This document shows, one piece after another, positions 1,069 to 64,000 of a DNA stretch of 64,000 nucleotides; the stretch's first letter is position 1, and every line of letters begins with the position of its first letter. The translations under genes were made by a program, and so were the position numbers. The notes below the pieces were generated by a model that did no database searches, was not told the origin of the DNA, and saw only the letters and a list, made by a program, of their open reading frames with translations. The stretch spans positions 223,154-287,153 of the forward strand of contig CAZWXQ010000003.1 in the NCBI GenBank assembly GCA_964637955.1, in the 5' to 3' direction. Origin of the DNA: an uncultured Gammaproteobacteria bacterium. GTDB lineage: Bacteria; Patescibacteriota; Microgenomatia; Levybacterales; UBA12049.

Positions 1069-1272
1069 ATCGTTTATTATTTTTAATAATTATTTTATAA
1101 ATCTCAAGCACGATTCTTATACCTCCAGCATATAAATTCTTTATTGTAAATTAAAATTTTATCTTATTCCAATCCGATGGGTGAACATTTTTCTCATACT
1201 AGACTAATAAGCTAGAGCATTATATATTTGTAAAATGTTATTTGTAAATACGGCTGAGCGATTTAACATAGT

Positions 1273-3831: not shown

Positions 3832-3849
3832 CATTGTTATAATGCTTTT

Positions 3850-5900: not shown

Positions 5901-5935
5901 TTTTAAAATTTGGTAGAATCTTCTAGATAAAACTA

Positions 5936-7024: not shown

Positions 7025-7052
7025 AAAAATGATGCTATAATACCTCAATCTT

Positions 7053-8087: not shown

Positions 8088-8254
8088 ACCCGTTGATTAA
8101 ATTGTAATTGCAATAAATTTTAATATAAAAAATATTGACCCCCATAGAGAAAGATTTAAAGGCATTAATAATCTGCCTGTTTATGATATTAAGAATAAGA
8201 AAGTGATAAAGAAAAAGGAAATATGCGAATAATAAAAAATACATTTTCGTACCA

Positions 8255-12216: not shown

Positions 12217-12341
12217 ATAATCTTAAATGTTATAATAGCTTAAGTATAATTTAAAGTGACTAAAGCCGCATTTTTTTTCATATTCTGGAGTATTCTCATT
12301 TTAATCATCTATGTATATTTTCTGCTTTGTAGAGGAGGATT

Positions 12342-49591: not shown

Positions 49592-49674
49592 TTATTAACT
49601 AATAATACACCTTTTGGAAAACCTGAGATAGAGAGTGTAATGTGGCGGGTGCTAATCGGCTATGTTAGGAATAC

Positions 49675-50430
49675 TTATTGCAATACTGCTTCTTGAGGAA
49701 GGTATCTGAACAATAAATCTTGATCAAAGCTGCCTGGTGCAATAAGTCCATACTTTCTCGCCATTTCTACTGTTGGCTTTCCTGGAAAAGCAAAAGATGT
49801 TAGAAGTAAAATTCCTCCCTCAGTCATAACATTTGGGGCAAGCCTTAGAAACTCTTCTTTATTGTATCTGTCAATTGCGTCATGCAATCCGAAAGTGGTG
49901 ATTAAAGAATATTTTTTATTGTCTGGATTTGAAAGGAAAGAAAACATGCCCTGTTCTATAGCTGTAGATCCTGGAGCAACTCTGTCAATCCTTCTTCTTG
50001 CATGCTCGCTAAAGCGTCTGTCAAGAAGCGTCACTTTTTCAAATGGGATTCCAAGTTTTTGAGCTAATTCTAATTCCGCATGTGCTTGTCCTGCACCTAG
50101 ACCCAGCATCTCAGCTTGACTAAAATCAGTTTCTGGAAAGTAAAATTTAAGAGTATCTCGTGTAGTTTCGGCCCAGATACCATCTGAGTTTAGGTTGTCA
50201 TATGAATCTCCTATGTGTGAAACACGATCTAATTTGTGGGGTTGACTTTGTAATCCTGCTGAGCTACTCAACTCACTTAAAGCAGCAGACAATAATAGTG
50301 GCTTGGAGGGTAACACGCCAAAATATACACCATCAGCTACATGGCAGTAAAAATCCGATCTATCAATAATTTCAATAGGGGTCATTTCGTTCATGCGTGG
50401 GATTATATCAAGAAGGTTGGAGTATATCAA
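49675..50430 (-). CDS. Hypothetical protein with a methyltransferase-like Rossmann motif
   Basis: It is 251 aa with EMLGLGAGQAHAELELA as a motif-I-like segment. It starts 10 nt downstream of tRNA-Asp. Confidence 0.45.
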   Translation of the reverse strand: MIYSNLLDIIPRMNEMTPIEIIDRSDFYCHVADGVYFGVLPSKPLLLSAALSELSSSAGLQSQPHKLDRVSHIGDSYDNLNSDGIWAETTRDTLKFYFPETDFSQAEMLGLGAGQAHAELELAQKLGIPFEKVTLLDRRFSEHARRRIDRVAPGSTAIEQGMFSFLSNPDNKKYSLITTFGLHDAIDRYNKEEFLRLAPNVMTEGGILLLTSFAFPGKPTVEMARKYGLIAPGSFDQDLLFRYLPQEAVLQ

Positions 50431-50439
50431 ACTATATCT

Positions 50440-50517
50440 TGGCGGGGTGGACGGGACTCGAACCCGCGACCTCTTCCGTGACAGGGAAGCGCTCTAACCA
50501 AACTGAGCTACCACCCC
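50440..50517 (-). tRNA. tRNA-Asp (anticodon GUC), CCA encoded
   Basis: The reverse complement is GGGGTGGTAGCTCAGTTTGGTTAGAGCGCTTCCCTGTCACGGAAGAGGTCGCGGGTTCGAGTCCCGTCCACCCCGCCA. The anticodon loop is CTGTCAC. Confidence 0.85.
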
Positions 50518-50688: not shown

Positions 50689-51327
50689 TTGCCAAGATTA
50701 AAAATGTTTGTTATAAATTTAAGCGAAATGGTAGTCGCAAAAAAAACGCAAAAAAAAGAAAAACTAAATAAGAAAGCATCTAAGGCTACGCCTGTACCTA
50801 AAAAAAATTCTACAAAGCCGGTTAAAAAAACATCTAAAACTCCAACTGTGTCAGTAAAATCAGATGTTAAATCTACAAAAAAGCCTGCTAAAAAAGTTTC
50901 AAATAAAAAATCTGTAGAAATTATTGAGTCGACGTCTGAAACTTCAAAAATAAATACTTCCAAAAAATCCAAATCAAATCAAAAGTTTTATGATCAATTG
51001 AAGTTAAGTGAATCATATGTAAGTTTGGTGCTTGGTGCAGTCGTGGTGGTGGGAATTTCATTTTTATTCTTAGTTTTTCTAAAAGAATCTAGAAAAACAA
51101 ATCTTACGAAACCGGAAGTCTTAAATGCTGAGATTAGTCCAGTGCTTACTAAAACACCCGCAAAAACTTATACCATGGGGGAAAATGAAACACTTTGGGA
51201 TGTGGCCGTGAAGTTTTATGGTGATGGATTTGCTTATCCAAAGATTATTGAAGCAAATAAAGATGTAATTCAGAATGCAGACTTTGTTCCACCGGGAACT
51301 GTGATTATTATTCCTGACGCAAAATAA
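50689..51327 (+). CDS. LysM-domain membrane protein with a lysine-rich N-terminal tail
   Basis: It has an N-terminal K/T/S-rich low-complexity region, one TM helix, and a C-terminal LysM (YTMGENETLWDVAVKFYG...IIIP). Confidence 0.7.
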   Translation: MPRLKMFVINLSEMVVAKKTQKKEKLNKKASKATPVPKKNSTKPVKKTSKTPTVSVKSDVKSTKKPAKKVSNKKSVEIIESTSETSKINTSKKSKSNQKFYDQLKLSESYVSLVLGAVVVVGISFLFLVFLKESRKTNLTKPEVLNAEISPVLTKTPAKTYTMGENETLWDVAVKFYGDGFAYPKIIEANKDVIQNADFVPPGTVIIIPDAK

Positions 51328-51330
51328 ATA

Positions 51331-52008
51331 CTATTTGCGAATAAGCTCTACTAAGATCAACCTAACGATAGCCCATCCATTAAAAAGGGGATGCATTTTG
51401 CGTTTACCGCCAATTCTTTTTGGTTCGCTTGCGGGAATCTCAGTTACTTTTAATTTTTCCTTCGCGCAGTGTATTGATAGCATGGGTTCTAGTCCTGCTC
51501 TCGGAATATTTATATCCATTTTTCTAACGACATCTTTTTTATAGGCGCGCATCATGACAAGAGTGTCTGTATACTTACCTCCAAAACATATATTAATTAT
51601 TTTTGTAAACATCCAGTTTCCAAATGCAGTAACTGGGTCATCGTCTTCACTTTTTGCGCCTTTCATGTATCTTGAGCCGATTACCATGTCATAATCTCCC
51701 TCCTTCATCTTTTTGACCAGAAGAGGAATTGCTTCAGGAAGAGAGTTTCCGTCGGGGCTAAATGATACGATTAGGTCACCTCGTGCAGCTTTAAGTCCTT
51801 CTCGAACAGCATTGGTTATACCTTTTTCTTTTTGCATGACGACTCTGTAGCCTTTGGACTTTGCATATTCTACGGTTCCATCTGTAGAGCCGCCATCTAA
51901 AAATAGGATTTCATCGACCCATTCTTTTTTAACATGAGGCATAACGACTTTCATGCCGTCAATTTCGTTTAACGTTGGAATAAGAAGAGTTACTTTATTT
52001 TTTTTCAT
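51331..52008 (-). CDS. GT2 polyprenol-phosphate sugar synthase (DPM1-like)
   Basis: VTLLIPTLNEIDGM...LFLDGGSTDGT is present. Length is 225 aa. Confidence 0.75.
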   Translation of the reverse strand: MKKNKVTLLIPTLNEIDGMKVVMPHVKKEWVDEILFLDGGSTDGTVEYAKSKGYRVVMQKEKGITNAVREGLKAARGDLIVSFSPDGNSLPEAIPLLVKKMKEGDYDMVIGSRYMKGAKSEDDDPVTAFGNWMFTKIINICFGGKYTDTLVMMRAYKKDVVRKMDINIPRAGLEPMLSIHCAKEKLKVTEIPASEPKRIGGKRKMHPLFNGWAIVRLILVELIRK

Positions 52009-52999
52009 TAAATACGTTGTATCTTTTATTTACGTCCTTTTTATTCGCCAAATACCATTCTATCGTCTCCTTGATTCCTTGTTCAAGTGTTACAAAGGGC
52101 GTGAATCCAAGAAGCTTCTTAGCCCGAGTTGTATCCATTAGTCTTTTTTTATCTCCCATGGGTTTGGTTTTATCCCACTTAATTTTAATAGGTCCGTTAG
52201 GCGCCAGGCTTGCTACTGTTTCTGCAATTTGCTTTATGGTTACCCCTGTTCCGCTTCCCAAATTAACTGGAACACTTATTCCATTTTCAAGAGCCAAAGA
52301 CATGCCACGGGCGACATCTTTGGCGTGAATGAGATCTCTTATTGGTGTGCCATCCCCCCATACTGTTAAAGGATTTTCTCCATTTACAGCTCTGTAAATA
52401 AGTGAAGGAATAACCATGGCATTCTCAGGATCAAAATTGTCATATGATCCGTACACGTTAGCCGGGCGAACTATTGAAATTTTATCCCAGCCATATTGAA
52501 TTTTGTAGCTTTCTGCTTGAAGTTCTCCCATGCGTTTTGCCCATCCTGCGAATTTATCATTTTCAGATGGAAAAGTTTTCCAAACATCATCCTCATAAAA
52601 AACTTCTGCTGGAGAATACACGCCAACTGAACTTGTATAAAGAAATCTTTTAACTTTTGCGCGACGGGAAGCCTCCATCATGTTGGTATTAAAAAGAATT
52701 GTTGGTACAAAAAAACTTGCAGGTTGTTCTTTTGTCATTTTCGGAGAGCCTTTTATGCCTGCGAGATGAAACACGAAGTCAATTCCTTCGCAAACCTGTC
52801 TGCAGTTATTTATATCTGTTAAATCTAATTTTGAAAACTTTGCTTTAGGATGAGCGCGAGATGAGTCATCAAGGGAAGCTATTGTAACTTTTGCACCCTT
52901 TTCAATCAGAAGATCGACGAGATATTTTCCAATCATGCCTGTCCCGCCTGTTACCAGTACTTTTTTATTTTTATAAAAATTATTTTTACTTTTTTCCAT
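51995..52999 (-). CDS. NAD-dependent nucleotide-sugar epimerase/dehydratase/reductase (SDR)
   Basis: KVLVTGGTGMIGKYL is the Rossmann motif. The start is assigned to the internal Met (MEKSKNN); the ORF-track start at 53137 adds a non-coding-looking leader. Confidence 0.7.
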   Translation of the reverse strand: MEKSKNNFYKNKKVLVTGGTGMIGKYLVDLLIEKGAKVTIASLDDSSRAHPKAKFSKLDLTDINNCRQVCEGIDFVFHLAGIKGSPKMTKEQPASFFVPTILFNTNMMEASRRAKVKRFLYTSSVGVYSPAEVFYEDDVWKTFPSENDKFAGWAKRMGELQAESYKIQYGWDKISIVRPANVYGSYDNFDPENAMVIPSLIYRAVNGENPLTVWGDGTPIRDLIHAKDVARGMSLALENGISVPVNLGSGTGVTIKQIAETVASLAPNGPIKIKWDKTKPMGDKKRLMDTTRAKKLLGFTPFVTLEQGIKETIEWYLANKKDVNKRYNVFNEKK

Positions 53000-53741
53000 T
53001 TGATTTCGTTTTTTTTGAAACTGTATTCGTAGGGATCGTGAAATATGCATATTTAAATGGAGACAAAAAAGCTGGAAGCTTAAGCCAAGGATATTCCAAA
53101 ACCACAAGATACCAGTAGAAAGGTCCAACAAGATCACTGAACTTTTTTGAGATTACCTCCTGTTTTTTAAATCCAGCTTTTTTTAAAAATCCATCCAAAG
53201 TGGACTGCGCAAGTACAAATGTCGGCATTGAGCCTGTGAGCTTAACTTTAATCCTTTCAAGTCTTTCCAAGTACTTAGGTAAAAAAATTTCGACAACTAT
53301 GATTTCTTTTTTACATACTCTTGCGAGCTCTTTGAAAAATTTCTCAAACTTCAAATATTGATCTTCATTTGATTCAAGTCCCAGGTGATGGAGTACGCCG
53401 TTTACTAAAACATAATCAAAGGAATTGTCTTTAAACGGTAAGTCCGCTCCGTCAGCTACTACTTGAATGTACTTATCTTTTCCATTTGATCTTTTTAGCA
53501 TCTCTTTATTTTTATCTACACCAACAAATTTAACTAGTGTTGCTGCGATCTCGTCTCCAAGGACATCGGACGGCTTAACTCCTCCGTTTCCAACATCAAG
53601 TACAGTAGATTTCTTTAGTCTTGGGTAATAGTTTTTAACTGCAACGTCGAAAATTGCTCTATTTACTCGAGAATTTACATCGTGTTCATAGTTTTTGCTG
53701 ATTTTGTCGAATTGATCTTTCTGCGATTTACTTAGACTCAT
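52986..53741 (-). CDS. Class I SAM-dependent methyltransferase
   Basis: Motif I is VLDVGNGGV. VGVDKN and FDYVLVNGVLHHL are present. Confidence 0.65.
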   Translation of the reverse strand: MSLSKSQKDQFDKISKNYEHDVNSRVNRAIFDVAVKNYYPRLKKSTVLDVGNGGVKPSDVLGDEIAATLVKFVGVDKNKEMLKRSNGKDKYIQVVADGADLPFKDNSFDYVLVNGVLHHLGLESNEDQYLKFEKFFKELARVCKKEIIVVEIFLPKYLERLERIKVKLTGSMPTFVLAQSTLDGFLKKAGFKKQEVISKKFSDLVGPFYWYLVVLEYPWLKLPAFLSPFKYAYFTIPTNTVSKKTKSNGKK

Positions 53742-54673
53742 ATATTTGCATAATCGTTTCTTTTAATTACCTGGTAGCCTTTAATTAATTCTGAAATACC
53801 TGATGACAAAGAAACCTTCGTTTTATATCCAGTCTTTTCTATTTTTTCATTTGAAACAATATAATTCCTTTGATCGGGATCCTTTCCAATAGGGGAATCA
53901 ACAAAGGTAAATTTTGGAATAAGTTTTTTAATTTCTTCGCAAAGTTCTCTTTTTGAGAGATTAGCTTCAGACAGGCCTACATTGTAGGCTTCATTTTTCA
54001 TTGTAGCAAAATTTTCCATAGTGTGGATAAACGCTCTAGCTACATCTCTAACGTGGATATAATTTCTCTTGAAGTCTGCTTCAAAAAGTACAACATAGCC
54101 ATCATTTAAGGCGCGGTAAGTAAAATCATTAACAAGAAGATCAAGTCTCATGCGAGGACTAATTCCAAAAACTGTTGCAAGTCGAAGCGTTATTACGTTT
54201 TTTTCTCGAAGTAGCGCTTTTTCTGCATCGACTTTTAGTTTTCCGTACAGTGAGATTGGATTAAGTGGCGATTTTTCGGTACAAAAAGCACCAGCCTTTC
54301 CGACCCCATATCCGCTATTAGTATTTGGAAAGATTATTTTTTGATTTGGTTTACGGAGTTTAAGAATTAGCTTAACCGCATCAAGATTAATTGATTTTGC
54401 TTCAAGTGGAAACTTGTCACATAATGGAGCGCCGACAAGACACGCGAGAGGAATAATAAAATCTTGGTTTAAGATAGCAGATTTCATCAATTTTTCATCT
54501 CGACAATCACCTCGAATTATCTTTAGATTTTTGTCATAACAAACATTGAGAAGGCTGTTTTGTTTGTAGTAAAAATTATCAACAACTGTTACTTCTATGC
54601 CTTTTTCAAGAAGCATAGGAACGAGAATCGAGCCAATATATCCGGCGCCTCCGGTCACTAAAACTTTTACCAT
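53738..54673 (-). CDS. NAD-dependent nucleotide-sugar epimerase/dehydratase (SDR)
   Basis: VLVTGGAGYIGS and YGKLKVDAEK (the YxxxK motif) are present. Confidence 0.75.
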   Translation of the reverse strand: MVKVLVTGGAGYIGSILVPMLLEKGIEVTVVDNFYYKQNSLLNVCYDKNLKIIRGDCRDEKLMKSAILNQDFIIPLACLVGAPLCDKFPLEAKSINLDAVKLILKLRKPNQKIIFPNTNSGYGVGKAGAFCTEKSPLNPISLYGKLKVDAEKALLREKNVITLRLATVFGISPRMRLDLLVNDFTYRALNDGYVVLFEADFKRNYIHVRDVARAFIHTMENFATMKNEAYNVGLSEANLSKRELCEEIKKLIPKFTFVDSPIGKDPDQRNYIVSNEKIEKTGYKTKVSLSSGISELIKGYQVIKRNDYANI

Positions 54674-54776
54674 TTATATAAATTCATACTTTAATAAATT
54701 CAGTATGACCCTTAGTTTTTCGCACATTCGATATTTTCAGTTCAACCCTGAGCAAAGTCGAAGTGGGTCGAGCGGG

Positions 54777-55721
54777 TCATAAAATATTTTTTTTGTACCA
54801 CGAAATTGTTTTTTCTATGCCTTCGTCCAAGGTGATTTTTGGCTTCCAGCCATAAGTTTTTTTCGCATGACTCGCATCAACAGCCAAATCAAATTTAATT
54901 GTTGGTTTTGATGAATCAAACTCCAAGTTAATTTTTTTACCGGAAATTTTAATAATTTTAGTTATTACTTCTTTTACTGAGAAGGCTTGCTCTATGCCTA
55001 AGTTAACCAAATCAAATTTTTCTTTTTGTTTTTTCAAAACTAATTCAACGAAATCAACTAAATCTGAAACATAAAGCAGGTCTCTCTTTTCAGATCCATC
55101 TCCCCAAACTGAAATCTTTTCATCTTTAGCGGTTAAAACCTTCGTAACCGTTGCTCCAAAAAAATGAGATCTTTCTAAATCGTACTTGTCGTAAGGCCCA
55201 TAAATATTTGAATGTCTTATCGCAGTATATTTGGTGTCTCCAATTCTTGAGTAAAACTCACACATTTTTTCCAAATAAACTTTTGTCCAACCAACTCCAA
55301 AATACTTATTAATAATTTGAGAATTAAAGTCGGTTTCTTTTACAGGTTTTTTTTGACTTGGATACATTGTGGTACAGCTAAAGAAGATTACATGTTTAAC
55401 TTTTTCTTCAAAACATGCTCGAAAGATAAGGCTATTCATTACGGCATTATCAGTAACATGGATGTACGGCCTTGTAACAACATCCTTTGAGCCAGTAGTT
55501 ACTGCAGCTGCTTGAATTACGATATCTTTTCCTTTTATTATTTTATCTACTTCTTCTGTTTTTGTTAGGTCAACTTTTATTAGTTTAATGCTTTTAATGT
55601 TGGGTTTTTTGGTAAGGTATGTGCCATAAATTTGTAAATCTTTTCTTTTGGAAAGTCTCTCCGCAATATTTTGTCCAATAAAACCGCTTACTCCGCAGAT
55701 TAATACGCTTGTTTTTTTCAT
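54777..55721 (-). CDS. NAD-dependent nucleotide-sugar epimerase/reductase (SDR)
   Basis: The Rossmann motif is VLICGVSGFIGQN. Length is 314 aa. Confidence 0.7.
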   Translation of the reverse strand: MKKTSVLICGVSGFIGQNIAERLSKRKDLQIYGTYLTKKPNIKSIKLIKVDLTKTEEVDKIIKGKDIVIQAAAVTTGSKDVVTRPYIHVTDNAVMNSLIFRACFEEKVKHVIFFSCTTMYPSQKKPVKETDFNSQIINKYFGVGWTKVYLEKMCEFYSRIGDTKYTAIRHSNIYGPYDKYDLERSHFFGATVTKVLTAKDEKISVWGDGSEKRDLLYVSDLVDFVELVLKKQKEKFDLVNLGIEQAFSVKEVITKIIKISGKKINLEFDSSKPTIKFDLAVDASHAKKTYGWKPKITLDEGIEKTISWYKKNIL

Positions 55722-55723
55722 TT

Positions 55724-56905
55724 TTATTTAACGTTATTCAATATATCACACAACTCATAAATTTTCTTCTCCTCAAGTGTGGGGTAGTTGCCTATATAAA
55801 AACCATAAAAATGAATGTGCTCTACGTTGGGAAATCTTTTATATTCTTTATCGTCAACAAGTTTTTTTAAATAAGGTTGTCTTAATTGATTTCCTCCACC
55901 AGAAGTTCCTCTACGAAATTCAACTCCATGAGCAAGAAGTGCTTTCATAACCTTTTCTGCAAAAAGCATATTAGGTTTTTTTATAACTAAAACAAATGCG
56001 TAATTACTGCTGCCTTCAGTTTCAAAATCTGTTTGATATATTTCCGAATTTAAATTTTCTAAAAAAACCTTTAAATTTTTTGTGCGAATTTTAATGTTTT
56101 TATCCAATCTTTTTAATTGTGATAATCCCATAACCGCAGCTATTTCAGTAGAGCGCATGTTATATGCAGGATAGGCGAATATGAAATCTGGATTTAGGTC
56201 CGGATATTTTTTTTGATAATATTTTTTTGTTTTGATAGAACTGGCCTCTCGTACCATGCCATGAGCGCGAAGCATTCGAAGCATTTCATAAATTTGGGAG
56301 TTATTTGTTGAGATCATTCCACCCTCTATCGTACTCATGTGATGAGCGTAATAAAAAGAAAAATTTGACATAAGACCAAATGTGCCAAGCTTTTTCTTTT
56401 TAAACGTTGCTCCATGTGATTCGCAAACGTCCTCAATAAGTGGAATTTTTCTAAGTCGCAACTCGTCTAATAATTTTTGAGTCAGTCCGTTATGTCCTAA
56501 TATATGAGTTAAAAAAACAGCTTTTGTTTTAGAATTAATTTTTTTCAAAACCTCTTTTTCTTCCATTGCGAGCGTTCTGGGATTGATATCCACAAATACC
56601 GGCTTAAAACCACATTGCATAACAGACGCTATATCAGAAACCCAGGTTAGGGGAGGGACAATTATTTCTCCCAAGCCGTATGTTTCTCGCAGAGCAAGAA
56701 TACTTAAAAGGTTTGCTGATGAGCCAGAGTTAACAAAAACACTATATTTACTTCCAAGCCATTTTGACCATTCTTGTTCAAATTTTTGTACATTAGTTGA
56801 CTGAGTAAGTATTGGATCGTTTTTGGATGAGAGGAATTCAATAACATTATCTAAATCTTCCCTTAAAATATTGTTTTGCATGAGTGGCCACTGTAGATTT
56901 TTCAT
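55724..56905 (-). CDS. DegT/DnrJ/EryC1-family PLP/PMP-dependent sugar 3-dehydratase (ColD/E1-like)
   Basis: SGSSANLL is present. The active-site block FSFYYAHHMSTIEGG has His at the position that holds the Schiff-base Lys in aminotransferases, as in ColD/E1 3-dehydratases. There is no C-terminal Cys cluster. Confidence 0.65.
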   Translation of the reverse strand: MKNLQWPLMQNNILREDLDNVIEFLSSKNDPILTQSTNVQKFEQEWSKWLGSKYSVFVNSGSSANLLSILALRETYGLGEIIVPPLTWVSDIASVMQCGFKPVFVDINPRTLAMEEKEVLKKINSKTKAVFLTHILGHNGLTQKLLDELRLRKIPLIEDVCESHGATFKKKKLGTFGLMSNFSFYYAHHMSTIEGGMISTNNSQIYEMLRMLRAHGMVREASSIKTKKYYQKKYPDLNPDFIFAYPAYNMRSTEIAAVMGLSQLKRLDKNIKIRTKNLKVFLENLNSEIYQTDFETEGSSNYAFVLVIKKPNMLFAEKVMKALLAHGVEFRRGTSGGGNQLRQPYLKKLVDDKEYKRFPNVEHIHFYGFYIGNYPTLEEKKIYELCDILNNVK

Positions 56906-57951
56906 TAAAACGGTCCTTTAAATTCAAATTCTGTAGACTTCAATGGTTCTTTGGGAGTCCATGTACTTCTTTTACCCGTAATCATTTTATACGCAGCCTG
57001 AGCGATCTGCAAGCCGTTAGGATAGAAAAGTTTCTCAAGTGATGGAGTAGGGGGACATGTAACCTGAGCAAAGCCCATACGATGAACTTTTATTTTTTTC
57101 TTATCTTGCATTTTTTCGACAACAGATGCGGTAATTTCACTACTAGCTCCACTTGTTATCCAATCATTGTCCACAACAATTAAGTGTCCTGTTTTAGAGA
57201 CAGATTTTGTAATGGTATCGATATCAAGAGGAGAAAGCCATATAGGATCTATAACTTCCGCACTTATTCCGATAGATTCTAAATACTCTCTTGCATGCAT
57301 GCACTCAAGCTGCATTTGTGAGATGCCAACTAAGGTTACGTCTTTGCCTTTTGCTGTTATTCTTGCTTTACCAGGCTCTACGGTGTATTGTTTTTCTGGT
57401 ACAAATCCTTTTTGGAAATGAAGAATTCTATGTTCAACAAAAATTACAGGATTATTGTCTCTAATTGCTGCAGTTAAAGATCCTTTTGCATCGTATGGGG
57501 TAGTTGGCGCTACTACTTTGAGGCCCGGAACATGCATAAAAAATGAGTAAAGTCCTTGTGAGTGCTGTGCTCCCTGGCCCCAGCTTTTGCCAATCATGCC
57601 TCTTACTACAAGAGGAATATTTACTTGTCCGCCATACATATAATGGGTTTTAGCAGCAATATTCACAAGTTGATTCATAGCAAGCATCATAAAATCCATT
57701 CTGATGTGTACGTGGATTGGTTTTAGTCCTGCAAGCGCCATGCCTACCGCTACTCCTGTCATAGAGTCTTCAGAAAGAGGAGTACCAAAGACACGACTCG
57801 AACCAAATTTATCAACTAGTCCTTTTGTAGTGCCTTGAATTGCTTTTGGATCATCTACATCCAGTCCGAATACGAGAACAGATTTATCCCGACTCATTTC
57901 TTGGTCGGTAGCTTCTCTTATTGCTTCAATGTAGGAAAGTTTGCGTATCAT
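56905..57951 (-). CDS. TPP-dependent dehydrogenase E1 beta-like subunit (transketolase-like)
   Basis: MIRKLSYIEAIREA...VLVFGLDV is a typical E1-beta N-terminus. The start is assigned to the internal Met at 57951. Confidence 0.7.
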   Translation of the reverse strand: MIRKLSYIEAIREATDQEMSRDKSVLVFGLDVDDPKAIQGTTKGLVDKFGSSRVFGTPLSEDSMTGVAVGMALAGLKPIHVHIRMDFMMLAMNQLVNIAAKTHYMYGGQVNIPLVVRGMIGKSWGQGAQHSQGLYSFFMHVPGLKVVAPTTPYDAKGSLTAAIRDNNPVIFVEHRILHFQKGFVPEKQYTVEPGKARITAKGKDVTLVGISQMQLECMHAREYLESIGISAEVIDPIWLSPLDIDTITKSVSKTGHLIVVDNDWITSGASSEITASVVEKMQDKKKIKVHRMGFAQVTCPPTPSLEKLFYPNGLQIAQAAYKMITGKRSTWTPKEPLKSTEFEFKGPF

Positions 57952-57952
57952 G

Positions 57953-58918
57953 TTAATCTTTAAAAACATCGCTGTAAAGCTCGGAGTCATTTGGGAATGG
58001 ACTTTTTTCTGCAAAATCGAAAGCATCTTGAATCTCTTTTTCTACAGTGTTTTCGATTTTATTGCGACTTTGTGTATCGATTAGCTCTCCAACTTTTTTA
58101 ACCTGGTCGTTTTTTACCCAAATCGCTCTTTCTTTTTCGCTTCTATATCCCAAATGAAAATCGTCATTTGGCCCTACATGTTCTTTCCACCTGTAAGTCA
58201 TGCATTCAAAGAAAAATGGACCTGAAATTCCTTGTCTTAAAGCTTGAATTTTAGATCCTACGCTGTCATATATTTTGAAAACGTCATTATTCTCAATTTT
58301 TTCAGAAGGTACTCCGAAAGATTTAACTTTTTCTAAAATGCTACTCCCTTGTCTTTGCTTTAAATGAGTATGTATTGCATAAAAGTTATTCTCGCAAATA
58401 AAGATAATTGGAAGTTTTTTAATGACAGCAAAATTGATACTTTCCCAAAAAACACCTTCATCAGTTGCACCGTCTCCAAAAAAACAGACTACAATAGACT
58501 TACTGCCTTTAGATTTTAGGGTATATGCATATCCAACTGCATGAGGAATGCTTGTTCCGACAACAGCAGATGTTCCCATAAAACCAGCTTCGATATCAAT
58601 TAGATGCATAGACCCTCCTTTTCCTTTAGCGCATCCCGTTGCTTTTCCATAGAGTTCTGCAATCATTTTACTTAAATCTCCACCTTTAGCTAGGTAAAGC
58701 GCATGGCCTCTATAAGTACCGAAAACGATATCGGTTGCTTTAAGAGCTTCACAAATACCAACTGAAACAGCCTCTTGGCCAATTGATAAGTGTACAGGAG
58801 ACTTAATTTTATCTGTTGGATAAACTTTCGCAATTTCTTCTTCAACGCGTCTAATTTTATATAAAGATTTATAGAATTTATTTGGTGATATTTTTTTCAT
58901 TTTTTTTAAACCATTCAA
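57953..58918 (-). CDS. TPP-dependent dehydrogenase E1 alpha-like subunit
   Basis: The TPP-binding motif GDGATDEG and YRGHALYLAKG are present. Length is 321 aa. Confidence 0.75.
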   Translation of the reverse strand: MNGLKKMKKISPNKFYKSLYKIRRVEEEIAKVYPTDKIKSPVHLSIGQEAVSVGICEALKATDIVFGTYRGHALYLAKGGDLSKMIAELYGKATGCAKGKGGSMHLIDIEAGFMGTSAVVGTSIPHAVGYAYTLKSKGSKSIVVCFFGDGATDEGVFWESINFAVIKKLPIIFICENNFYAIHTHLKQRQGSSILEKVKSFGVPSEKIENNDVFKIYDSVGSKIQALRQGISGPFFFECMTYRWKEHVGPNDDFHLGYRSEKERAIWVKNDQVKKVGELIDTQSRNKIENTVEKEIQDAFDFAEKSPFPNDSELYSDVFKD

Positions 58919-59822
58919 TAGTGAGATTTAATCCAACATCTAATGATGTTTTTGGCTCCCACCCTAAGGCTTTTATTTTTGAAGAATCTAAAAGTTTCCT
59001 TGGCATGCCATCTGGATGAGAAGTTTCAAATTTAATTTTTCCTTTAAATCCTGTTTGCTTACTGATTTCCTCAATCAATTCTTTTATAGATATATCATTT
59101 CCTGATCCAACATTAATAAACTCTGGATGATTATAATTTTGCATTAAAAAATATAGTGCATCTGCAAGGTCGTCAACATAGAGAAATTCTCTTTTTACTT
59201 TTCCAGTTCCCCAAATTTCAATGGAAGATAAATTATTTCGCTTGGCATCTAAGAATTTTCTTATAAGTGCCGGTAAAACATGAGAAACTTCTGGGTCAAA
59301 TTTATCGTTTGGGCCATAGATCGTTGCTGGCATCGCACAGATAAATTCTTTTTTAAATTGTTTAGAAATATACTCACAAAGTTTTAAGCCAGCGATTTTT
59401 GCAACAGCATATCCTTCATTGGAGGGTTCAAGTTTTCCAGTCAAAAGAAATTCTTCTTTCATTGGTTGAGGACTATCTTTTGGATAAATACATGAACTTA
59501 ATAAAAATAATAATTTTTTGACGTCTTTTTTATGCGATGTCCAGATTAAATTATTTTGAATCATTATGTTTTCATGCAAGAACTGCGCTTGGTGTGTCAT
59601 ATTGGCTTTAATTCCACCTACTTTGGCAGCAGCGATGATTACATATTCAGGTTTTTCTTCATCAAAAAATTTTTCAACTAAATCTTGTCTAGTTAAATCT
59701 AGCTCTGAATGAGTTTTAGTTATAATATTTTTATAGCCTTCTTTTTGGAACTTGGACAAAAGAGAAGAACCAACAAGTCCAGTGTGACCTGCGATATAAA
59801 TTCTAGCTTTTTTAGGTATCAT
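58878..59822 (-). CDS. GDP-L-fucose synthase family 3,5-epimerase/4-reductase (Fcl/ColC-like)
   Basis: Long blocks match E. coli Fcl: IYIAGHTGLVGSS, AAAKVGGI, KLLFLLSSCIYPK and EGYAVAKIAGLKLCE. The start is assigned to the internal Met at 59822. Confidence 0.8.
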   Translation of the reverse strand: MIPKKARIYIAGHTGLVGSSLLSKFQKEGYKNIITKTHSELDLTRQDLVEKFFDEEKPEYVIIAAAKVGGIKANMTHQAQFLHENIMIQNNLIWTSHKKDVKKLLFLLSSCIYPKDSPQPMKEEFLLTGKLEPSNEGYAVAKIAGLKLCEYISKQFKKEFICAMPATIYGPNDKFDPEVSHVLPALIRKFLDAKRNNLSSIEIWGTGKVKREFLYVDDLADALYFLMQNYNHPEFINVGSGNDISIKELIEEISKQTGFKGKIKFETSHPDGMPRKLLDSSKIKALGWEPKTSLDVGLNLTIEWFKKNEKNITK

Positions 59823-60819
59823 ATTTATATTCCTCCAGGATATCATAAAAAATAATTTGTGATCCTTCATGTTCAAATTTGAAGGGTACATGAACGAGCT
59901 TTTTTAATTTTTCTTTAACATTTTTTTGATTTTTTGGAGGAACAAAAAGGAGCAGGAATCCGCCGCCACCAGCGCCAATAAGTTTTCCACCTATTGCACC
60001 CGCGCTTTTTGCCTTTTTATATATTTCATCAATCTCGGAATTGGAGACAATTGGGCTTAGGGATCTTTTTAATTTCCAAAATTCGTCGAGCAACTCCCCT
60101 AATTCATTTAAATTTTTCTTACTGTTTAAAATTGAAATTGCTTCATCTACCGAAGCTTGCATAAGACTAAGCTGTTTTTGTTGGTTGTTAATTTTTTTTA
60201 CATAACTTTTTGCTATATTTGAAGCTGTTCTCGGAATTCCCGTATAAAATAACATGAGATGTTTTTCTAGTTCATTAATGCGATTTGCAGAAAGAGTCAT
60301 TGGTTTAACAATAATATTTCCGTCTCTTTGAAAAGTGATATGGTTAAATCCTCCATATGCGGCAAGAGTTTGATCTTGATATCCCACAGTTTCTTTTAAG
60401 ATTTCTTGTTCAAGTCGAATGCCTTCACGCGCCAATTGCTGTTTACTTAACATTTGTCCCTGCAAGGCATGGAGAGCGTTAAGGAGTCCCACCGTGAGAG
60501 CAGAACTTGTACCAAGTCCTGATCTTGCGGGTAAATCTCCATCGTGATGAATTGCTAATCCATCCTGAATTTTCAAGAAACGAATAGCTTCTCTTACTGC
60601 AGGATGCTTAATTTCATCAATTGTATTACATAATTCATTTTTTGAATACACAATACGATATTTGTGCCAAAAGAATGGAGGTAAATATCTTACATTTAAA
60701 TAAGAATATTTGTTAATTGTGGTAGCAAGGACTGCACCGCCGTGTTCTTTAACCCAATCGGGATAATCCGTACCTCCACCAAAAAAAGATATGCGGAAAG
60801 GGGTTCTGCTTATGACCAT
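59812..60819 (-). CDS. GHMP-family sugar kinase, HddA-like (D-glycero-D-manno-heptose 7-phosphate kinase)
   Basis: PFRISFFGGGTDYP and GLGTSSA GHMP motifs are present. It is adjacent to gmhA. Confidence 0.7.
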   Translation of the reverse strand: MVISRTPFRISFFGGGTDYPDWVKEHGGAVLATTINKYSYLNVRYLPPFFWHKYRIVYSKNELCNTIDEIKHPAVREAIRFLKIQDGLAIHHDGDLPARSGLGTSSALTVGLLNALHALQGQMLSKQQLAREGIRLEQEILKETVGYQDQTLAAYGGFNHITFQRDGNIIVKPMTLSANRINELEKHLMLFYTGIPRTASNIAKSYVKKINNQQKQLSLMQASVDEAISILNSKKNLNELGELLDEFWKLKRSLSPIVSNSEIDEIYKKAKSAGAIGGKLIGAGGGGFLLLFVPPKNQKNVKEKLKKLVHVPFKFEHEGSQIIFYDILEEYKYDT

Positions 60820-61430
60820 ATTTCTTTATGCTTCATTTTTACAAAAAGATAATGCTCAACAATTTCACAGAGTATGTGCTCAACAATCAAAAGAGATTCT
60901 TGAATATATTGGGTATTTTTGCTTGGAATAGAGATTGACAAATCTGCCACTTTTAAAAGTTCTCCGGAGCTGCCAGTTAAAGCAAGAGTGTGCAATTTTT
61001 TATGATTAGCTGCCTTAATAGCTCTGATAATATTCTTAGAGTTTCCGCTCGTTGAGATACCTATTAATAGATCGTTTTTTTGACCAAGTCCCTGCACTTG
61101 ACGTTCAAAAACTCCCTCAAAGCCAAAGTCATTGGAAAAAGCAGTTATCACTGATGAATCAGCAGTTAGGGCAAAGGCAGGTAGCGTTGGCCTACTTAGA
61201 TTTTTATCGAGCATATTAACAAATTCCGCCGCTATATGCTGACAATCGGCAGCGCTTCCTCCATTCCCACAAAGTAAAATTTTGCCACCTGATAAAAATG
61301 TGTCAACAATTAGCTGAGATGCAGCTAGTATGGAATCGTTACATGTTTTTAATGTGAGCTGATTGACTCGTATGCTTTCTAGTAAGTGTTTCTCTGCTTT
61401 TTTGCGATAGAAGTTATTGCTGTTAGCCAT
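60810..61430 (-). CDS. gmhA: SIS-domain phosphoheptose isomerase (sedoheptulose-7-phosphate isomerase)
   Basis: GNGGSAADCQHIAAEF matches the GmhA GNGGS..D..HFAEE block. Length is 206 aa. Confidence 0.85.
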   Translation of the reverse strand: MANSNNFYRKKAEKHLLESIRVNQLTLKTCNDSILAASQLIVDTFLSGGKILLCGNGGSAADCQHIAAEFVNMLDKNLSRPTLPAFALTADSSVITAFSNDFGFEGVFERQVQGLGQKNDLLIGISTSGNSKNIIRAIKAANHKKLHTLALTGSSGELLKVADLSISIPSKNTQYIQESLLIVEHILCEIVEHYLFVKMKHKEIWS

Positions 61431-61469
61431 TTTGTAGCAGAGTTTATGTCAAATTTATATTATTGTCAA

Positions 61470-62153
61470 TTATGGTTTGGAAGACATGATTTTATCGTAA
61501 ACTAATTGGGGAGTTATGTCTTTCCAAGTTGTAAATATTGCGTCCGGTTGCAGATCAAAAACTAATCCTTCGTGAACTGGAAAAACAACTACTCTTGCTC
61601 CAGCTTTTTCTGCTGCGATTTTGCCTGGTGGAGAATCTTCATGAACGAGCATCTTTTCAGGAGATGCTTGTATTCCGAAAATTTCAGAAGCCTTAATGTA
61701 AACTTCTGGGTCAGGCTTTAATTTTTTAACACTAGACTCAGTCAATATATGTCCTGGGTTGAAAAATCTTAATAGATCAGATCTTCTAAGTATCTCAAAT
61801 GCATTCCCATCAGGTGTAATTGAGGCAAGCACTAATTCTCCTCCTAGGCTTCTAACTGTTTCAAGATATTCTGAAACTCCTTCCCTAGGTGAAATAGGAT
61901 AAGAATAAAGTAGCTCTTCATATAGCTTTTCTTTTTCTGCACGAATTATTATTGGATCTATTTTATCGGTAGTCATTTTTGAGATTGCTTCAGATATTGC
62001 TTTATCTCCAGCTCCAACAAAACTATGGAATTCATGCTGTCCGAATCTTACACCGTAATTTGAGGCAACTTGCTCAAGAGCTTCTTGGTGTAATCCTTCT
62101 AAATCAACAGCTGTTCCTTCGAGATCTACTGCATTGTATTGAAAAATTTCCAT
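61470..62153 (-). CDS. HAD-superfamily (subfamily IA) phosphatase
   Basis: Motif I is VDLEGT, which has Glu at +2 instead of Asp. The motif IV region is HEDSPPG. Confidence 0.6.
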   Translation of the reverse strand: MEIFQYNAVDLEGTAVDLEGLHQEALEQVASNYGVRFGQHEFHSFVGAGDKAISEAISKMTTDKIDPIIIRAEKEKLYEELLYSYPISPREGVSEYLETVRSLGGELVLASITPDGNAFEILRRSDLLRFFNPGHILTESSVKKLKPDPEVYIKASEIFGIQASPEKMLVHEDSPPGKIAAEKAGARVVVFPVHEGLVFDLQPDAIFTTWKDITPQLVYDKIMSSKP

Positions 62154-62286
62154 TAATCTATTGCTATTAAGCGAGCATACTATCAGCTAATAGATAGGAA
62201 ATCAAATTCATTTCGTTAATTTGTAGATTATAGTTTTCAGAAAAATTAATTGCTATACTAATGAGCACAAGCAATTTTATATTACT

Positions 62287-63006
62287 ATGCAAGCGATTAT
62301 CATGGCAGGAGGGAAGGGTACAAGGCTCCAAAAAGTTACGAATGATGAAATCCCCAAAGCGTTGGTTCAAATAAACAATAAGCCTTTACTTGACTATGTC
62401 ATAGAGCATGCAATCAAAAATGATTTTGACAAAATAATTATATGTACTGGTCACTTAGGCCACAAAATTCAAGAGTATATTAGCAATAAAAATTATGATG
62501 CATCAATTTATATTTCTCAAGAAAGTGAGCCAATGGGCACAGCCGGTTCTCTTCATTTGATTTCTGATTTATTGGAAGATGAATTTTTTATTATATATGC
62601 TGATGTTTATTCGACAATAAATTTAAAAAAAATGTTTGATTTTCACAAAAAAACAAAAGCAAATGTAACAATTGCAGTTCATAAATCTAATCACCCGCAA
62701 GATAGTACAGTTGTAAAAATTGATAAAAACGGTAAGTACTTAGCTATGATTCAAAAACCGGGTGATAAGTGGAAAGAGTACGGCAATTTGACGCAAACAT
62801 CTCTTTATATAGTAAAAAAAGACATCTTAAATTATGTTAAAAAAAACATAAAGCAAGATTTTGAATCAGACATTTTTCCATTATTGCTTAACAAAGGTGA
62901 GGATATTTATGGCTACATGACTTCTGAATACACAAAAGATATGGGAACTCCGGAAAGGTATAGCGATCTTATAAATAAATTACAGGTAGAAAACCTTGGC
63001 AAATGA
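62287..63006 (+). CDS. Sugar-1-phosphate nucleotidyltransferase, HddC/ManC N-terminal-domain-like (probable heptose-1-phosphate guanylyltransferase)
   Basis: AIIMAGGKGTRL and EPMGTAGSL are present. Length is 239 aa. Confidence 0.8.
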   Translation: MQAIIMAGGKGTRLQKVTNDEIPKALVQINNKPLLDYVIEHAIKNDFDKIIICTGHLGHKIQEYISNKNYDASIYISQESEPMGTAGSLHLISDLLEDEFFIIYADVYSTINLKKMFDFHKKTKANVTIAVHKSNHPQDSTVVKIDKNGKYLAMIQKPGDKWKEYGNLTQTSLYIVKKDILNYVKKNIKQDFESDIFPLLLNKGEDIYGYMTSEYTKDMGTPERYSDLINKLQVENLGK

Positions 63007-64000
63007 AGAGAATTGATTATACCGTTTGTTTTTTGATTGGTTTTTCTGCTTTAATCTCTCGAATTCCGTTTGTTGAAAAATTTCAGTCATTTTGGGATGG
63101 GCCTCAGCTAACCATTGGAATATCACATTTTTCAGTTGTCGAGCATACGCCAGCAGCTCCTGGATATCCATATTTTATTGGTTTGGGAAAATTTTTCCAT
63201 TTATTTTTTTCTGATCTTCATACATCAATTGTTGCAGTGAGCGTATTTGCAGCTGTCGTGGGTGCTATTACTCTTTATATTGTTGGACTAAAAATGTTCA
63301 ATCGTTTTGTTGGTTTCGCTGCCTCTGTAATTTTTTTAACTGGTTCAACTTTTTATTTCTTTTCAATAGCTCCTCATCCATACGATTTACTAATTACAGC
63401 GACTACGCTACTGGCTTATAGCGTCTATCGAATTTTTGTTCAAAAAAAACAAGAAGGAATATTTTTGGGACTTACAATAGGGATTTGTATTGGAATACGT
63501 CCTCAAGAAATTATAAATATTTTCATTTTATTTCTTCTTGGATTCTTGGTTCTTTCTACTAAAGAAAAAATCAAATCAATATTAGCTTCTGCTGTCATAT
63601 GTTTTTCTTGGTTTATTCCGATTGTTAATAGTGTAGGTTTTAGAAATTATTTTACAGAAGCTTCAGCAATTGCTAAAACAGGCATAGCTAGTCAATCGAT
63701 TTCAAATCATATCGAGTCGATGTTTAAAGGATTCCTTCTGAGTTTTGGAATTTCTGGAGGGTTCCTTGCTTATTATTCACTCAAGTTAAATCGAATAAAG
63801 AAAATCTCCTCAAAAGAAAAAGACCTTCTGATTTTTTACGGCGCTTGGATGCTGCCTGGATTTATTTACAATTTATTTTTTAGATCAGATGCTGTGGGTT
63901 ATCAGTTTAGTTATTTAATACCGTTACTTTTTCTAATCTCAAATGCAATCTGGTATTTAACAAGGAAAAGTAAATTTTTATATTTCTTTGTGCTTGCTTG
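63003..64000 (+). CDS. Polytopic membrane protein, GT-C-like glycosyltransferase. The 3' end lies beyond the window.
   Basis: The ATG at 63003 overlaps the upstream stop (ATGA). The frame is open to the window end. It is multi-TM with loop motif FWDGPQ...HTPAAPGYPYF. Confidence 0.45.
   Translation, partial: MKRIDYTVCFLIGFSALISRIPFVEKFQSFWDGPQLTIGISHFSVVEHTPAAPGYPYFIGLGKFFHLFFSDLHTSIVAVSVFAAVVGAITLYIVGLKMFNRFVGFAASVIFLTGSTFYFFSIAPHPYDLLITATTLLAYSVYRIFVQKKQEGIFLGLTIGICIGIRPQEIINIFILFLLGFLVLSTKEKIKSILASAVICFSWFIPIVNSVGFRNYFTEASAIAKTGIASQSISNHIESMFKGFLLSFGISGGFLAYYSLKLNRIKKISSKEKDLLIFYGAWMLPGFIYNLFFRSDAVGYQFSYLIPLLFLISNAIWYLTRKSKFLYFFVLA

Follow-up and report, generated by a model that had tools for sequence, protein, structure and literature searches.

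What does an operon make when it joins the enzymes of GDP-heptose synthesis to a ColD-type sugar 3-dehydratase and a thiamine diphosphate (ThDP)-dependent E1α/β pair? The question is raised by a locus at positions 50689-64000 of a 64,000-nucleotide stretch of DNA (contig CAZWXQ010000003.1, positions 223,154 to 287,153, assembly GCA_964637955.1), the whole of which is called the window here. The initial annotation, made from the sequence alone, had read the locus as an AT-rich island for a 3,6-dideoxy-heptose, a heptose analogue of colitose. The answer proposed here is that the operon would make a 3-deoxy sugar derived from heptose, bound to GDP and branched at C4 by two carbons, to be passed via polyprenyl phosphate to an extracytoplasmic acceptor; this reading of the gene families is given a probability of about one half. 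The locus consists of known nucleotide-sugar tailoring families in a new combination. It is most likely a chromosomal cell-surface glycan operon of a bacterium of the Patescibacteria, or candidate phyla radiation (CPR), the named homologues at 70-80% identity coming from Roizmanbacteria, Levybacteria, Daviesbacteria and Patescibacteria.

The operon and its gene products

The interval 50689-64000 holds 15 open reading frames (ORFs), 12 of which follow one another in the same direction on the minus strand, between 62153 and 51331. Neighbouring genes overlap by up to 41 bp or are separated by up to 103 bp, with overlaps at seven of the junctions; because the junctions are tight and many overlap, the minus-strand set is a single operon. 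The nucleotidyltransferase and GT-C genes are divergent from it, and a LysM gene converges on its end. Promoter and terminator scans gave site counts no higher than in shuffled sequence and were uninformative on the operon boundaries. The ORFs listed in the initial annotation all exist at, or within a few codons of, the positions assigned there, and Pfam confirmed their domain families. Families were assigned by Pfam and NCBIfam profile searches, PDB sequence matches and motif alignment. The operon's genes, including four short-chain dehydrogenases/reductases (SDRs), are given in order of transcription, followed by the two divergent genes.

61470-62153, minus strand: HAD-IA sugar-phosphate phosphatase, first gene of the operon (Pfam HAD_2)
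60810-61430, minus strand: GmhA, sedoheptulose-7-phosphate isomerase (NCBIfam and PDB matches)
59812-60819, minus strand: HddA-type GHMP kinase, D-glycero-D-manno-heptose-7-phosphate 1-kinase (NCBIfam HddA, PDB heptose-7-phosphate kinases)
58878-59891, minus strand: Fcl/ColC-type GDP-4-keto-sugar epimerase/4-reductase, true start probably the ATG near 59819 (NCBIfam GDP-L-fucose synthase, 429 bits, cut-off 500)
57953-58918, minus strand: ThDP-dependent E1 alpha (Pfam E1_dh, E 1.7e-61; NCBIfam pyruvate dehydrogenase (PDH) E1α, 289 bits, cut-off 394)
56905-58026, minus strand: ThDP-dependent E1 beta, true start probably near 57942 (Pfam Transket_pyr and Transketolase_C; NCBIfam PDH E1β, 300 bits, cut-off 321)
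55724-56905, minus strand: ColD-type sugar 3-dehydratase of DegT fold, dependent on pyridoxal or pyridoxamine phosphate (PLP/PMP) (best PDB match ColD, 2GMS)
54777-55721, minus strand: SDR_F, divergent Fcl-like SDR (Pfam Epimerase; distant Fcl match, 135 bits)
53738-54673, minus strand: SDR_E, Cj1427-type GDP-heptose C4-dehydrogenase (PDB 6VO6/6VO8)
52986-53741, minus strand: class I S-adenosylmethionine (SAM) methyltransferase (Pfam Methyltransf_11, E 6e-15)
51995-52999, minus strand: SDR_C, atypical Fcl-like SDR; the ORF extends to 53137, with a likely start at 52999 (Pfam Epimerase, E 3.6e-51)
51331-52008, minus strand: GT2 polyprenyl-phosphate sugar synthase (AglJ/DPM1/ArnC-like), last gene of the operon (Pfam Glycos_transf_2)
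62287-63006, plus strand: sugar-1-phosphate nucleotidyltransferase, divergent (Pfam NTP_transferase)
63006-64000, plus strand: GT-C (PMT_2/ArnT-like) membrane glycosyltransferase, running off the end of the window (Pfam PMT_2, TMEM260-like)

Predicted C4 oxidation by a Cj1427-type dehydrogenase

SDR_E matches PDB entries 6VO6/6VO8 at about 63% identity over its full length (390 bits, E 9e-116). The 6VO6 chain was identified by searching with its sequence, as taken from the alignment, and then by genome context. Its nearest cluster is a 313-aa Campylobacter jejuni protein that sits between an Fcl-like SDR and hddA-gmhA-hddC in its genome; since this is the position of Cj1427, 6VO6 is taken to be Cj1427. 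Cj1427 is the GDP-D-glycero-α-D-manno-heptose C4-dehydrogenase, which retains the 6-hydroxyl, yields GDP-D-glycero-4-keto-α-D-lyxo-heptose and re-oxidises its tightly bound NADH with α-ketoglutarate (PMC10680097). In SDR_E the sequence NTNSGYG replaces the T-S-E of dehydratases, and Tyr-x3-Lys is present as YGKLK. Homology thus gives good support to the prediction that SDR_E oxidises C4 of the GDP-heptose without 6-deoxygenation.

The initial annotation had expected one of three further SDRs, all of which are indeed present, to supply a 4,6-dehydratase step. No 4,6-dehydratase signature of the Gmd or RmlB type was found in the NCBIfam lists or motifs of the operon's four SDRs. Furthermore, tblastn with the Gmd-like family of related cassettes against the whole window turned up nothing but a dTDP-glucose-dehydratase-like gene that belongs to another cluster, at a distance of 45 kb. 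That Gmd-like family (motif CSTSEVYG; best NCBIfam model gmd, TIGR01472, 146 bits; Pfam GDP_Man_Dehyd, 212 bits) is encoded in the related loci L005-L007, L086-L088 and L091, in a slot between hddA and the E1α gene where the window has its Fcl-like gene. Because SDR_E is of the Cj1427 type and the Gmd-like family is absent, the intermediate would be a 3-deoxy-4-keto heptose with its 6-hydroxyl rather than a 3,6-dideoxy compound, and the 3,6-dideoxy-heptose first proposed as the product is not borne out, as a Cj1427-type SDR leaves O6 in place. Nor are such sugars uncharacterised, as had been supposed: the GDP-3,6-dideoxyheptoses of C. jejuni HS:5 and HS:11 were characterised in 2023 (PMC10440746).

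Predicted removal of the 3-hydroxyl

The DegT-fold protein matches ColD (2GMS) at 204 bits (E 3.9e-59) and about 40% identity, ahead of aminotransferases (at most 119 bits), perosamine synthase (115 bits) and the iron-sulphur (Fe-S) enzyme E1 (3BCX, 111 bits). Its segment FYYAHHMSTIEGG aligns to FYSHHIATMEGG of ColD, so that His188/His189 of AHHMSTIEGG falls on ColD His188 (SHHIATMEGG), the position of the Schiff-base Lys in the aminotransferases. The 3-dehydratase role given in the initial annotation as ColD/E1-type is thereby confirmed on its ColD side. Removal of the 3-hydroxyl by this predicted ColD-type enzyme is well supported by homology. Although RfbH leads the NCBIfam models, identity as E1 (AscC/RfbH) was rejected: among PDB entries ColD matches far better, and the protein has only 3 Cys, which leaves no room for an E1-type Fe-S cluster. 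Homologues of the window protein at 62-85% identity occur in many phyla.

CPR relatives also encode a second DegT clade (8829-10004 in each of L086, L087 and L088) that is 33% identical to the ColD-like protein and likewise has His at the Lys position (FSFYFGHQLSTIEGG); both clades are found in one operon in L087.

An E1α/β pair, probably for branching

The stop codon of the E1β gene overlaps the start of the ColD-like gene by 1 bp. The ThDP motif of E1α (GDG-x26-NN, at residue 148) is intact, which upholds the earlier description of a TPP-dependent E1 alpha/beta pair. No E2 or E3 gene was found in the operon, nor within ±10 kb in the relatives with precomputed Pfam annotation, and the region holds no single-chain ThDP/FAD acetolactate-synthase-like ORF of the YerE type. 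Because both subunits score just below the PDH-E1 cut-offs, pyruvate is suggested as the donor.

For the 4-C-acyl sugars yersiniose, erwiniose, caryophyllose and gastriose, ThDP-dependent addition to a 3-deoxy-4-keto nucleotide sugar has been shown or proposed (PMC9306805), and the E1α/β pairs AviB1/B2 and Pau11/12 are proposed pyruvate-using installers of a C4 acetyl group (PMC4753412). Since these precedents branch at C4, acetylation at C4 followed by ketoreduction is proposed here as well, and by this analogy the window pair would add a two-carbon branch at C4 of the sugar. The earlier suggestion of C-branching thus probably stands, but branching is no optional extra, as the E1α/β pair belongs to the core of the cassette.

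In a few loci a split transketolase of the Transketolase_N family was observed (L029:7315-8187, L077:8158-9021 and the L072:4648 region). It occupies the usual E1α/β slot in L029 and L077, flanked by the Fcl-like gene on one side and the ColD-like gene on the other.

The probable GDP-heptose front end

GmhA reaches 201.6 bits with the NCBIfam phosphoheptose isomerase model (cut-off 276) and 183 bits with the gmhA model (cut-off 209). In PDB, phosphoheptose isomerases fill its first 11 places (best E 3.5e-46) and DiaA ranks below them, so that the doubt whether it might be an unrelated SIS protein is dispelled. The best NCBIfam model of the kinase is HddA (E 3.4e-47, 161 bits against a cut-off of 600), and its top four PDB matches are heptose-7-phosphate kinases, including 4N3O, 3K85 and 4USK (E 1e-39 to 1e-35). 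Fucokinase (E 1e-15), galactokinase (1e-9) and mevalonate kinase fall far behind, and the enzyme is not of the GalK type. A kinase 54-89% identical to it lies beside the ColD-like gene in 46 of the 70 related loci described below.

The remaining two steps are less typical of the known route. The phosphatase at 61470-62153 does belong to the HAD family, as had been stated, but it is a type IA member and not of the GmhB type. Its best NCBIfam model is of the beta-PGM family, and its best PDB match is TM_1254, a 'phosphorylated carbohydrates phosphatase' (E 3e-18). It matched no GmhB model of NCBIfam, and tblastn with the GmhB-like family of related cassettes found nothing in the window. It is plausible that the HAD-IA enzyme stands in for the GmhB function. 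Its gene is absent from the syntenic relative L086, and most other cassettes have a PNK3P/GmhB-like HAD instead.

The nucleotidyltransferase is an NTP_transferase, as first described, but the label HddC-like is ambiguous: mannose-1-phosphate guanylyltransferase scores higher than HddC both in NCBIfam (120 against 98 bits) and in PDB (83 bits against 54 bits for Yersinia HddC 5XHW/6JQ8). As both families are guanylyltransferases, the protein is probably one too. GDP as the nucleotide also has indirect support, because all three downstream enzyme families use GDP-sugars. An orthologue 69% identical to the nucleotidyltransferase lies at the same position in L086.

Distribution and variants of the cassette

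Close homologues of the ColD-like protein number in the thousands. When species-representative genomes were scanned with it, 469 candidate stretches emerged. Loci were built by mapping the window proteins and clustering all ORFs, and architectures were counted over 70 loci. In the best 80 of the 469 stretches the ColD-like protein is 62-78% identical, and the names among these include Cyanobacteria, Verrucomicrobiota, Chloroflexota, Planctomycetota, several proteobacterial classes, Binatia, Acidobacteriota, Elusimicrobia, Spirochaetes, Bacteroidota, Firmicutes, CPR lineages and a metagenome-assembled genome of Woesearchaeota. The ColD–E1αβ–heptose cassette recurs in no fewer than 80 genomes at species level, their names pointing to some 15-20 phyla. 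Because the same genes stand beside the ColD-like gene in dozens of genomes from about 15-20 phyla, their co-location is far beyond chance. The E1α/β genes adjoin the ColD-like gene in 49 of the 70 loci, and E1α and E1β are fused in cyanobacterial copies.

The commonest form of the cassette encodes a Cj1427-like protein, nucleotidyltransferase, GmhB-type HAD, GmhA, in some cases a NUDIX protein, and HddA, followed by Fcl-like protein, E1α, E1β, ColD-like protein and a B12-binding radical-SAM protein. In 48 of the 70 loci (for example L018:11174-12730, L020, L023 and L025) the gene for the latter, a protein of about 510 aa, immediately follows the ColD-like gene. Among NCBIfam models this protein scores best with HpnJ (160 bits) and BchE (141 bits). 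HpnJ and BchE form C-C bonds in ring closures. A second architecture (L005-L007) runs HddA, Gmd-like, E1αβ, ColD, SDR_F and SDR_C. The radical-SAM protein and the SDR_F/SDR_C set exclude each other; counted for SDR_F, 48 loci have the radical-SAM gene alone, 8 have SDR_F alone and none has both. Recovered betaproteobacterial loci have the Gmd-like gene and no radical-SAM gene.

The window lacks the B12 radical-SAM gene and has two SDRs and a methyltransferase where most lineages have it. Its variant combines the Cj1427/Fcl front of the commonest form with the SDR_F/SDR_C/GT2 back of the second, and adds the methyltransferase and the HAD-IA phosphatase. Its exact gene order recurs in L090 at 78-87% amino-acid identity; the window is a stable, rarer variant of the cassette. 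The CPR relatives L086-L088 and L091 show further mixtures, including the second DegT clade and a divergent E1α/β pair 45-51% identical to that of the window, which shows that the middle of the operon has been exchanged as a module between variants.

Putative tailoring and transfer enzymes

The Fcl-like protein matches 7LL6 at 334 bits and E. coli Fcl at 307 bits in PDB, and the C. jejuni heptose C4-reductases 7ANH and 7ANC at 297 and 250 bits (PMC7949155). Its catalytic set of Ser-Cys, Tyr-x3-Lys and His is intact (SSCIYP, YAVAK, SHVLP), in agreement with its first description as Fcl/ColC-like. The SDR_F family shows the motifs SCT(V/T)MY, YFGVGWTK, with Tyr-x6-Lys spacing, and SH(V/F)F; SDR_F is presumed from its family to be a ketoreductase and/or epimerase acting on the branched intermediate. 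SDR_C matches E. coli Fcl at 115 bits, and its family keeps GxxGxxG and lacks the Fcl Cys and His. Members of the SDR_C family were observed in the window (51995-52999) and in L005-L007, L009, L072, L086 and L087. SDR_C co-occurs with its paralogue SDR_F.

Two methyltransferases had been counted, but the region holds only the one at 52986-53741; the ORF 49675-50430 lies outside it and has no Pfam or NCBIfam match. The methyltransferase gene overlaps both of its neighbours and has the same position in L090. The protein is presumed to be a sugar O-methyltransferase. In C. jejuni a 6-O-methyltransferase stands beside Cj1427.

The best NCBIfam models of the GT2 protein are AglJ (127 bits), dolichyl-phosphate hexose transferase and ArnC, all below cut-off, and an orthologue 75-83% identical ends the operon in L086 and L087. 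In the place of the GT-C gene, L086 encodes a protein of 501 aa that shares 78% identity with the GT-C protein of the window. These AglJ/DPM1/ArnC-like and PMT_2 families support the polyprenyl-phosphate route envisaged earlier for the two enzymes. No flippase of the GtrA or ArnE/F type was identified in the region.

Proposed pathway

The route would begin with the isomerisation of sedoheptulose-7-phosphate by GmhA and phosphorylation of C1 by the HddA-type kinase, both well supported by homology. The HAD-IA enzyme would then remove the 7-phosphate of heptose-1,7-bisphosphate, and the divergent nucleotidyltransferase would yield GDP-D-glycero-α-D-manno-heptose. Oxidation of C4 by the Cj1427-type SDR would give a GDP-4-keto-heptose with the 6-hydroxyl kept, and the ColD-type enzyme would remove the 3-hydroxyl, its PMP being formed from glutamate; homology supports both steps well. 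The half-reaction with glutamate would release α-ketoglutarate, the very co-substrate with which Cj1427 re-oxidises its NADH. In vitro, Cj1427 and the C3-dehydratase of HS:5 together give GDP-3-deoxy-4-keto-D-glycero-heptose, and GDP-3-deoxy-D-glycero-heptoses have been made (PMC10680097).

By analogy, the E1α/β pair would decarboxylate pyruvate, and attack of the resulting hydroxyethyl-ThDP carbanion on the C4 ketone would build a 4-C-acetyl nonose skeleton. The Fcl-type enzyme would epimerise C5 and/or reduce, SDR_F and SDR_C would reduce the acetyl ketone or otherwise tailor the sugar, and the methyltransferase would O-methylate it. Finally, as families and synteny suggest, the GT2 would load the sugar on polyprenyl phosphate and the GT-C would transfer it outside the membrane.

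A wider reading, offered only tentatively, takes the cassette as a route to C4-branched nonoses, with C1-C7 from a heptose and C8-C9 from pyruvate, the radical-SAM form being carbocyclic and the window form open-chain. Here C1-C7 would come from D-glycero-D-manno-heptose with O6 kept, the ColD-like enzyme would make it 3-deoxy, the Fcl/ColC-type enzyme would invert C5, E1αβ would join the pyruvate-derived C8 and C9 at C4, and the radical-SAM protein would close a C7-C8 ring. The window variant would make an O-methylated 3-deoxy-4-C-(1-hydroxyethyl)-heptose as a CPR surface decoration. Reasoning backwards from structure, the radical-SAM form may make caryose or a relative, because each structural feature matches one cassette enzyme. 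Read over C2, C4, C5 and C6, the D-ido descriptor of caryose gives D-glycero-D-manno-heptose inverted at C5 only, and caryose further requires 3-deoxygenation, a C4-C8 bond, a C9 methyl and C7-C8 ring closure. Bradyrhizose was rejected as a product, since its cluster centres on a dTDP-glucose dehydratase.

Weighing the alternatives

Several observations weigh against the C4-branched heptose as product of the operon. The curated equivalog cut-offs of NCBIfam were missed throughout. In the front end, the phosphatase is of type IA instead of the GmhB type and has DLEGT as motif I, with Glu at Asp+2 where TM_1254 has DMDGV, and the nucleotidyltransferase is not clearly HddC. Cj1427-like and Gmd-like genes share one operon in L086, L088 and L091, and in L005 and L007 they co-exist, in a separate neighbouring module. 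Because of this co-existence, the Cj1427-like role may not always be the initial C4 oxidation; speculatively, beside a Gmd-like enzyme it could be redox-coupled to a keto intermediate in a ping-pong manner. In SDR_C the catalytic Tyr is missing, FAGWAK replacing YxxxK across its family, and the roles of AviB1/B2 and Pau11/12 are proposals, not demonstrations. Most directly, a canonical Fcl and a C4-branching enzyme would compete for one ketone at C4, which the former reduces and the latter consumes. As both cannot use the same C4, either the Fcl-type enzyme serves C5 epimerisation or side-chain reduction, or two sugars are made, or E1αβ acts elsewhere. The second of these ways out would have the operon draw two sugars from one 4-keto pool, an O-methyl L-configured heptose and a 3-deoxy branched sugar, which is unlikely, if worth serious thought. 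Equally unlikely is the division of labour that it implies, with the Cj1427-like, Fcl-type and methyltransferase proteins making the former and ColD, E1αβ, SDR_F and SDR_C the latter. It would remove the conflict over C4 while the Fcl-type enzyme keeps all its catalytic residues. C. jejuni offers a parallel: its locus has the same set of Fcl-like protein, Cj1427, hddA, gmhA and hddC (PMC10680097), it makes L-gluco-heptose with Cj1427 and Cj1428, and Cj1427, Cj1430, Cj1428 and Cj1426 are its counterpart for an O-methyl heptose. However, the Fcl-like, E1α, E1β and ColD genes are contiguous and often translationally coupled across many phyla, which suggests a single pathway, and the operon encodes only one polyprenyl-phosphate GT2.

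That E1α/β instead extends or modifies the exocyclic side chain of C6 and C7, by carboligation to a ketone at C6 or an aldehyde at C7, or works as a 2-oxoacid decarboxylase for cofactor recycling, appears quite improbable. A heptose does offer extra positions for carbonyl formation, three SDRs are to spare, the Fcl-type enzyme could then reduce C4 in the normal way, and some relatives swap E1αβ for a split transketolase. We know of no precedent for an E1αβ acting on a sugar side chain, which counts against this. Moreover, the strict adjacency of E1αβ and 3-dehydratase mirrors known pathways that branch a 3-deoxy-4-keto sugar with ThDP (PMC9306805). A 3,6-dideoxyheptose made like colitose, through Gmd-like 4,6-dehydration, ColD and ColC, with branching and methylation as options, has ColD-type and Fcl/ColC-type enzymes in its favour, as well as the Gmd-like 4,6-dehydratase of related cassettes and the existence of such a pathway in C. 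jejuni HS:5 and HS:11 (PMC10440746). It is nevertheless held to be just as doubtful, as the only 4-keto-forming enzyme of the operon is of the Cj1427 type, none of the four SDRs bears a Gmd/RmlB signature, and E1αβ is core to the cassette and not accessory. The DegT-fold protein could lastly be an aminotransferase, the product then being a 4-amino and not a 3-deoxy sugar; DegT/PseC-family models do score well (PseC 177 bits), but with His in place of the Schiff-base Lys as in ColD, and ColD at 204 bits over aminotransferases at 119 or less, this is very improbable indeed.

Neighbouring genes and genomic setting

At 0.349, the GC content of 50689-64000 is close to that of the whole window (0.343) and lies within the range of 0.287-0.375 over all 13.3-kb sub-windows. 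In L086 the flanks are syntenic, with identities to the window of 84% for PolX, 84% for the adjacent 304-aa ORF, 78% for the GT-C protein and 69% for the nucleotidyltransferase, and a tRNA-Asp, at 50440-50517 in the window, occupies the same place. The reading as an AT-rich island, or as a product of horizontal transfer, was rejected, since composition is ordinary and the flanks, tRNA-Asp included, are syntenic with L086; for the latter reason the locus is seen as resident and not recently inserted. A tblastn search with the ColD-like protein against PLSDB plasmids gave no match at 1e-60. The gene convergent on the end of the operon is not conserved beside the cassette in other loci, and is probably a neighbour outside the pathway:

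50689-51327, plus strand: Lys-rich membrane protein with C-terminal LysM (Pfam LysM; NCBIfam LysM peptidoglycan-binding, E 3.6e-13)

Before the tRNA-Asp, the window encodes a family-X DNA polymerase (46881-48647), whose counterpart in L086 carries Pfam HHH_8 and DNA_pol_B_thumb, followed within 48677-50430 by two ORFs (304 and 251 aa) that matched neither Pfam nor NCBIfam models. The AT-richest stretch of the window is 1-14000 (GC 0.289), which holds a separate glycan cluster. This second cluster (1-15100, GC 0.289) encodes an RmlD-like reductase, a Wzx-type flippase, a methyltransferase, a GT1, a PMT_2 protein and an O-antigen-ligase-like protein, together with two GT2-PMT_2 fusions of 852 and 734 aa, another GT2 and a dTDP-glucose-4,6-dehydratase-like SDR (7053-8087). 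A 270-aa ORF at 15078-15890 has a weak match (38 bits, below cut-off) to a model of Ca2+-stabilised tandem-repeat adhesins.

Comparison with known systems

A near relative in content is the capsular heptose locus of C. jejuni (hddC-gmhA2-hddA-Cj1426-Cj1427-Cj1428-Cj1430; PMC10680097, PMC7949155), which shares GmhA, the HddA-type kinase and the nucleotidyltransferase, and in which an Fcl-family C4 enzyme and a methyltransferase likewise adjoin the dehydrogenase, Cj1427, that is 63% identical to SDR_E. Unlike that locus, the window has no cupin C3/C5 epimerase, adds the ColD-type enzyme, E1α/β, SDR_F and SDR_C, and would export its sugar by GT2 and GT-C instead of the Kps capsule system. No C. 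jejuni serotype is known to combine these four additions with Cj1427 in nature. With HS:5 and HS:11, and with the GDP-colitose route (Gmd, ColD, ColC), the window shares a His-type 3-dehydratase acting on a GDP-4-keto sugar, followed by an Fcl/ColC-family enzyme (PMC10440746); it differs in having no 4,6-dehydratase. Furthermore, its dehydratase, about 40% identical to ColD, forms a separate clade always linked to E1αβ, whereas the C. jejuni enzymes are 62-67% identical to ColD.

The routes to yersiniose A, erwiniose and caryophyllose (DdhB, DdhC/D, YerE, YerF; PMC9306805) resemble the proposed one in that ThDP-dependent acyl addition at C4 of a 3-deoxy-4-keto sugar is followed by reduction of the side-chain ketone. 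They work on CDP-hexoses with the Fe-S enzyme E1 and E3 and the single-chain YerE, an acetolactate-synthase-like flavoprotein, whereas the window implies a GDP-heptose, a ColD-type enzyme and a heterodimeric E1α/β, so that the likeness is mechanistic only. AviB1/AviB2 of avilamycin and Pau11/Pau12 of paulomycin (PMC4753412, PMC4425429) are similar as stand-alone E1α/β pairs without E2/E3 in a deoxysugar cluster; they belong to actinomycete secondary metabolism and to TDP- or UDP-hexoses or pentoses, and are likened to the window pair by description, not by sequence. The small GT2 with a GT-C/PMT_2 transferase encoded beside a sugar pathway recalls ArnC/ArnT, GtrB/Gtr and CsbB/YfhO. Full-text literature searches found no description of the ColD–E1αβ–heptose cassette or of its sugar product, nor of GDP-heptose combined with a Cj1427-type oxidase, a ColD-type dehydratase and an E1α/β carboligase. 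The obligate coupling of ColD and E1αβ on a heptose looks to be the novel part.

Implications

To our knowledge, Campylobacter accounts for nearly all that has been established on how heptoses are modified, and sugar branching with ThDP has been elucidated for no more than CDP-hexoses and a few antibiotics. The locus joins the two, and its interest lies in its membership of a very widespread, apparently uncharacterised pathway for a branched higher sugar, cultured carriers of which exist, for example, with the radical-SAM form, Nodosilinea nodulosa PCC 7104, Tumidithrix elongata BACA0141 and Microcoleus sp. If the reading is true, the E1α/β pair would be a stand-alone ThDP carboligase that takes ketones, of interest for biocatalysis, and a class of nine-carbon branched, possibly carbocyclic, surface sugars would have been overlooked in environmental bacteria. 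In that case, too, genome-reduced CPR bacteria would give over 13 genes to one exotic surface sugar.

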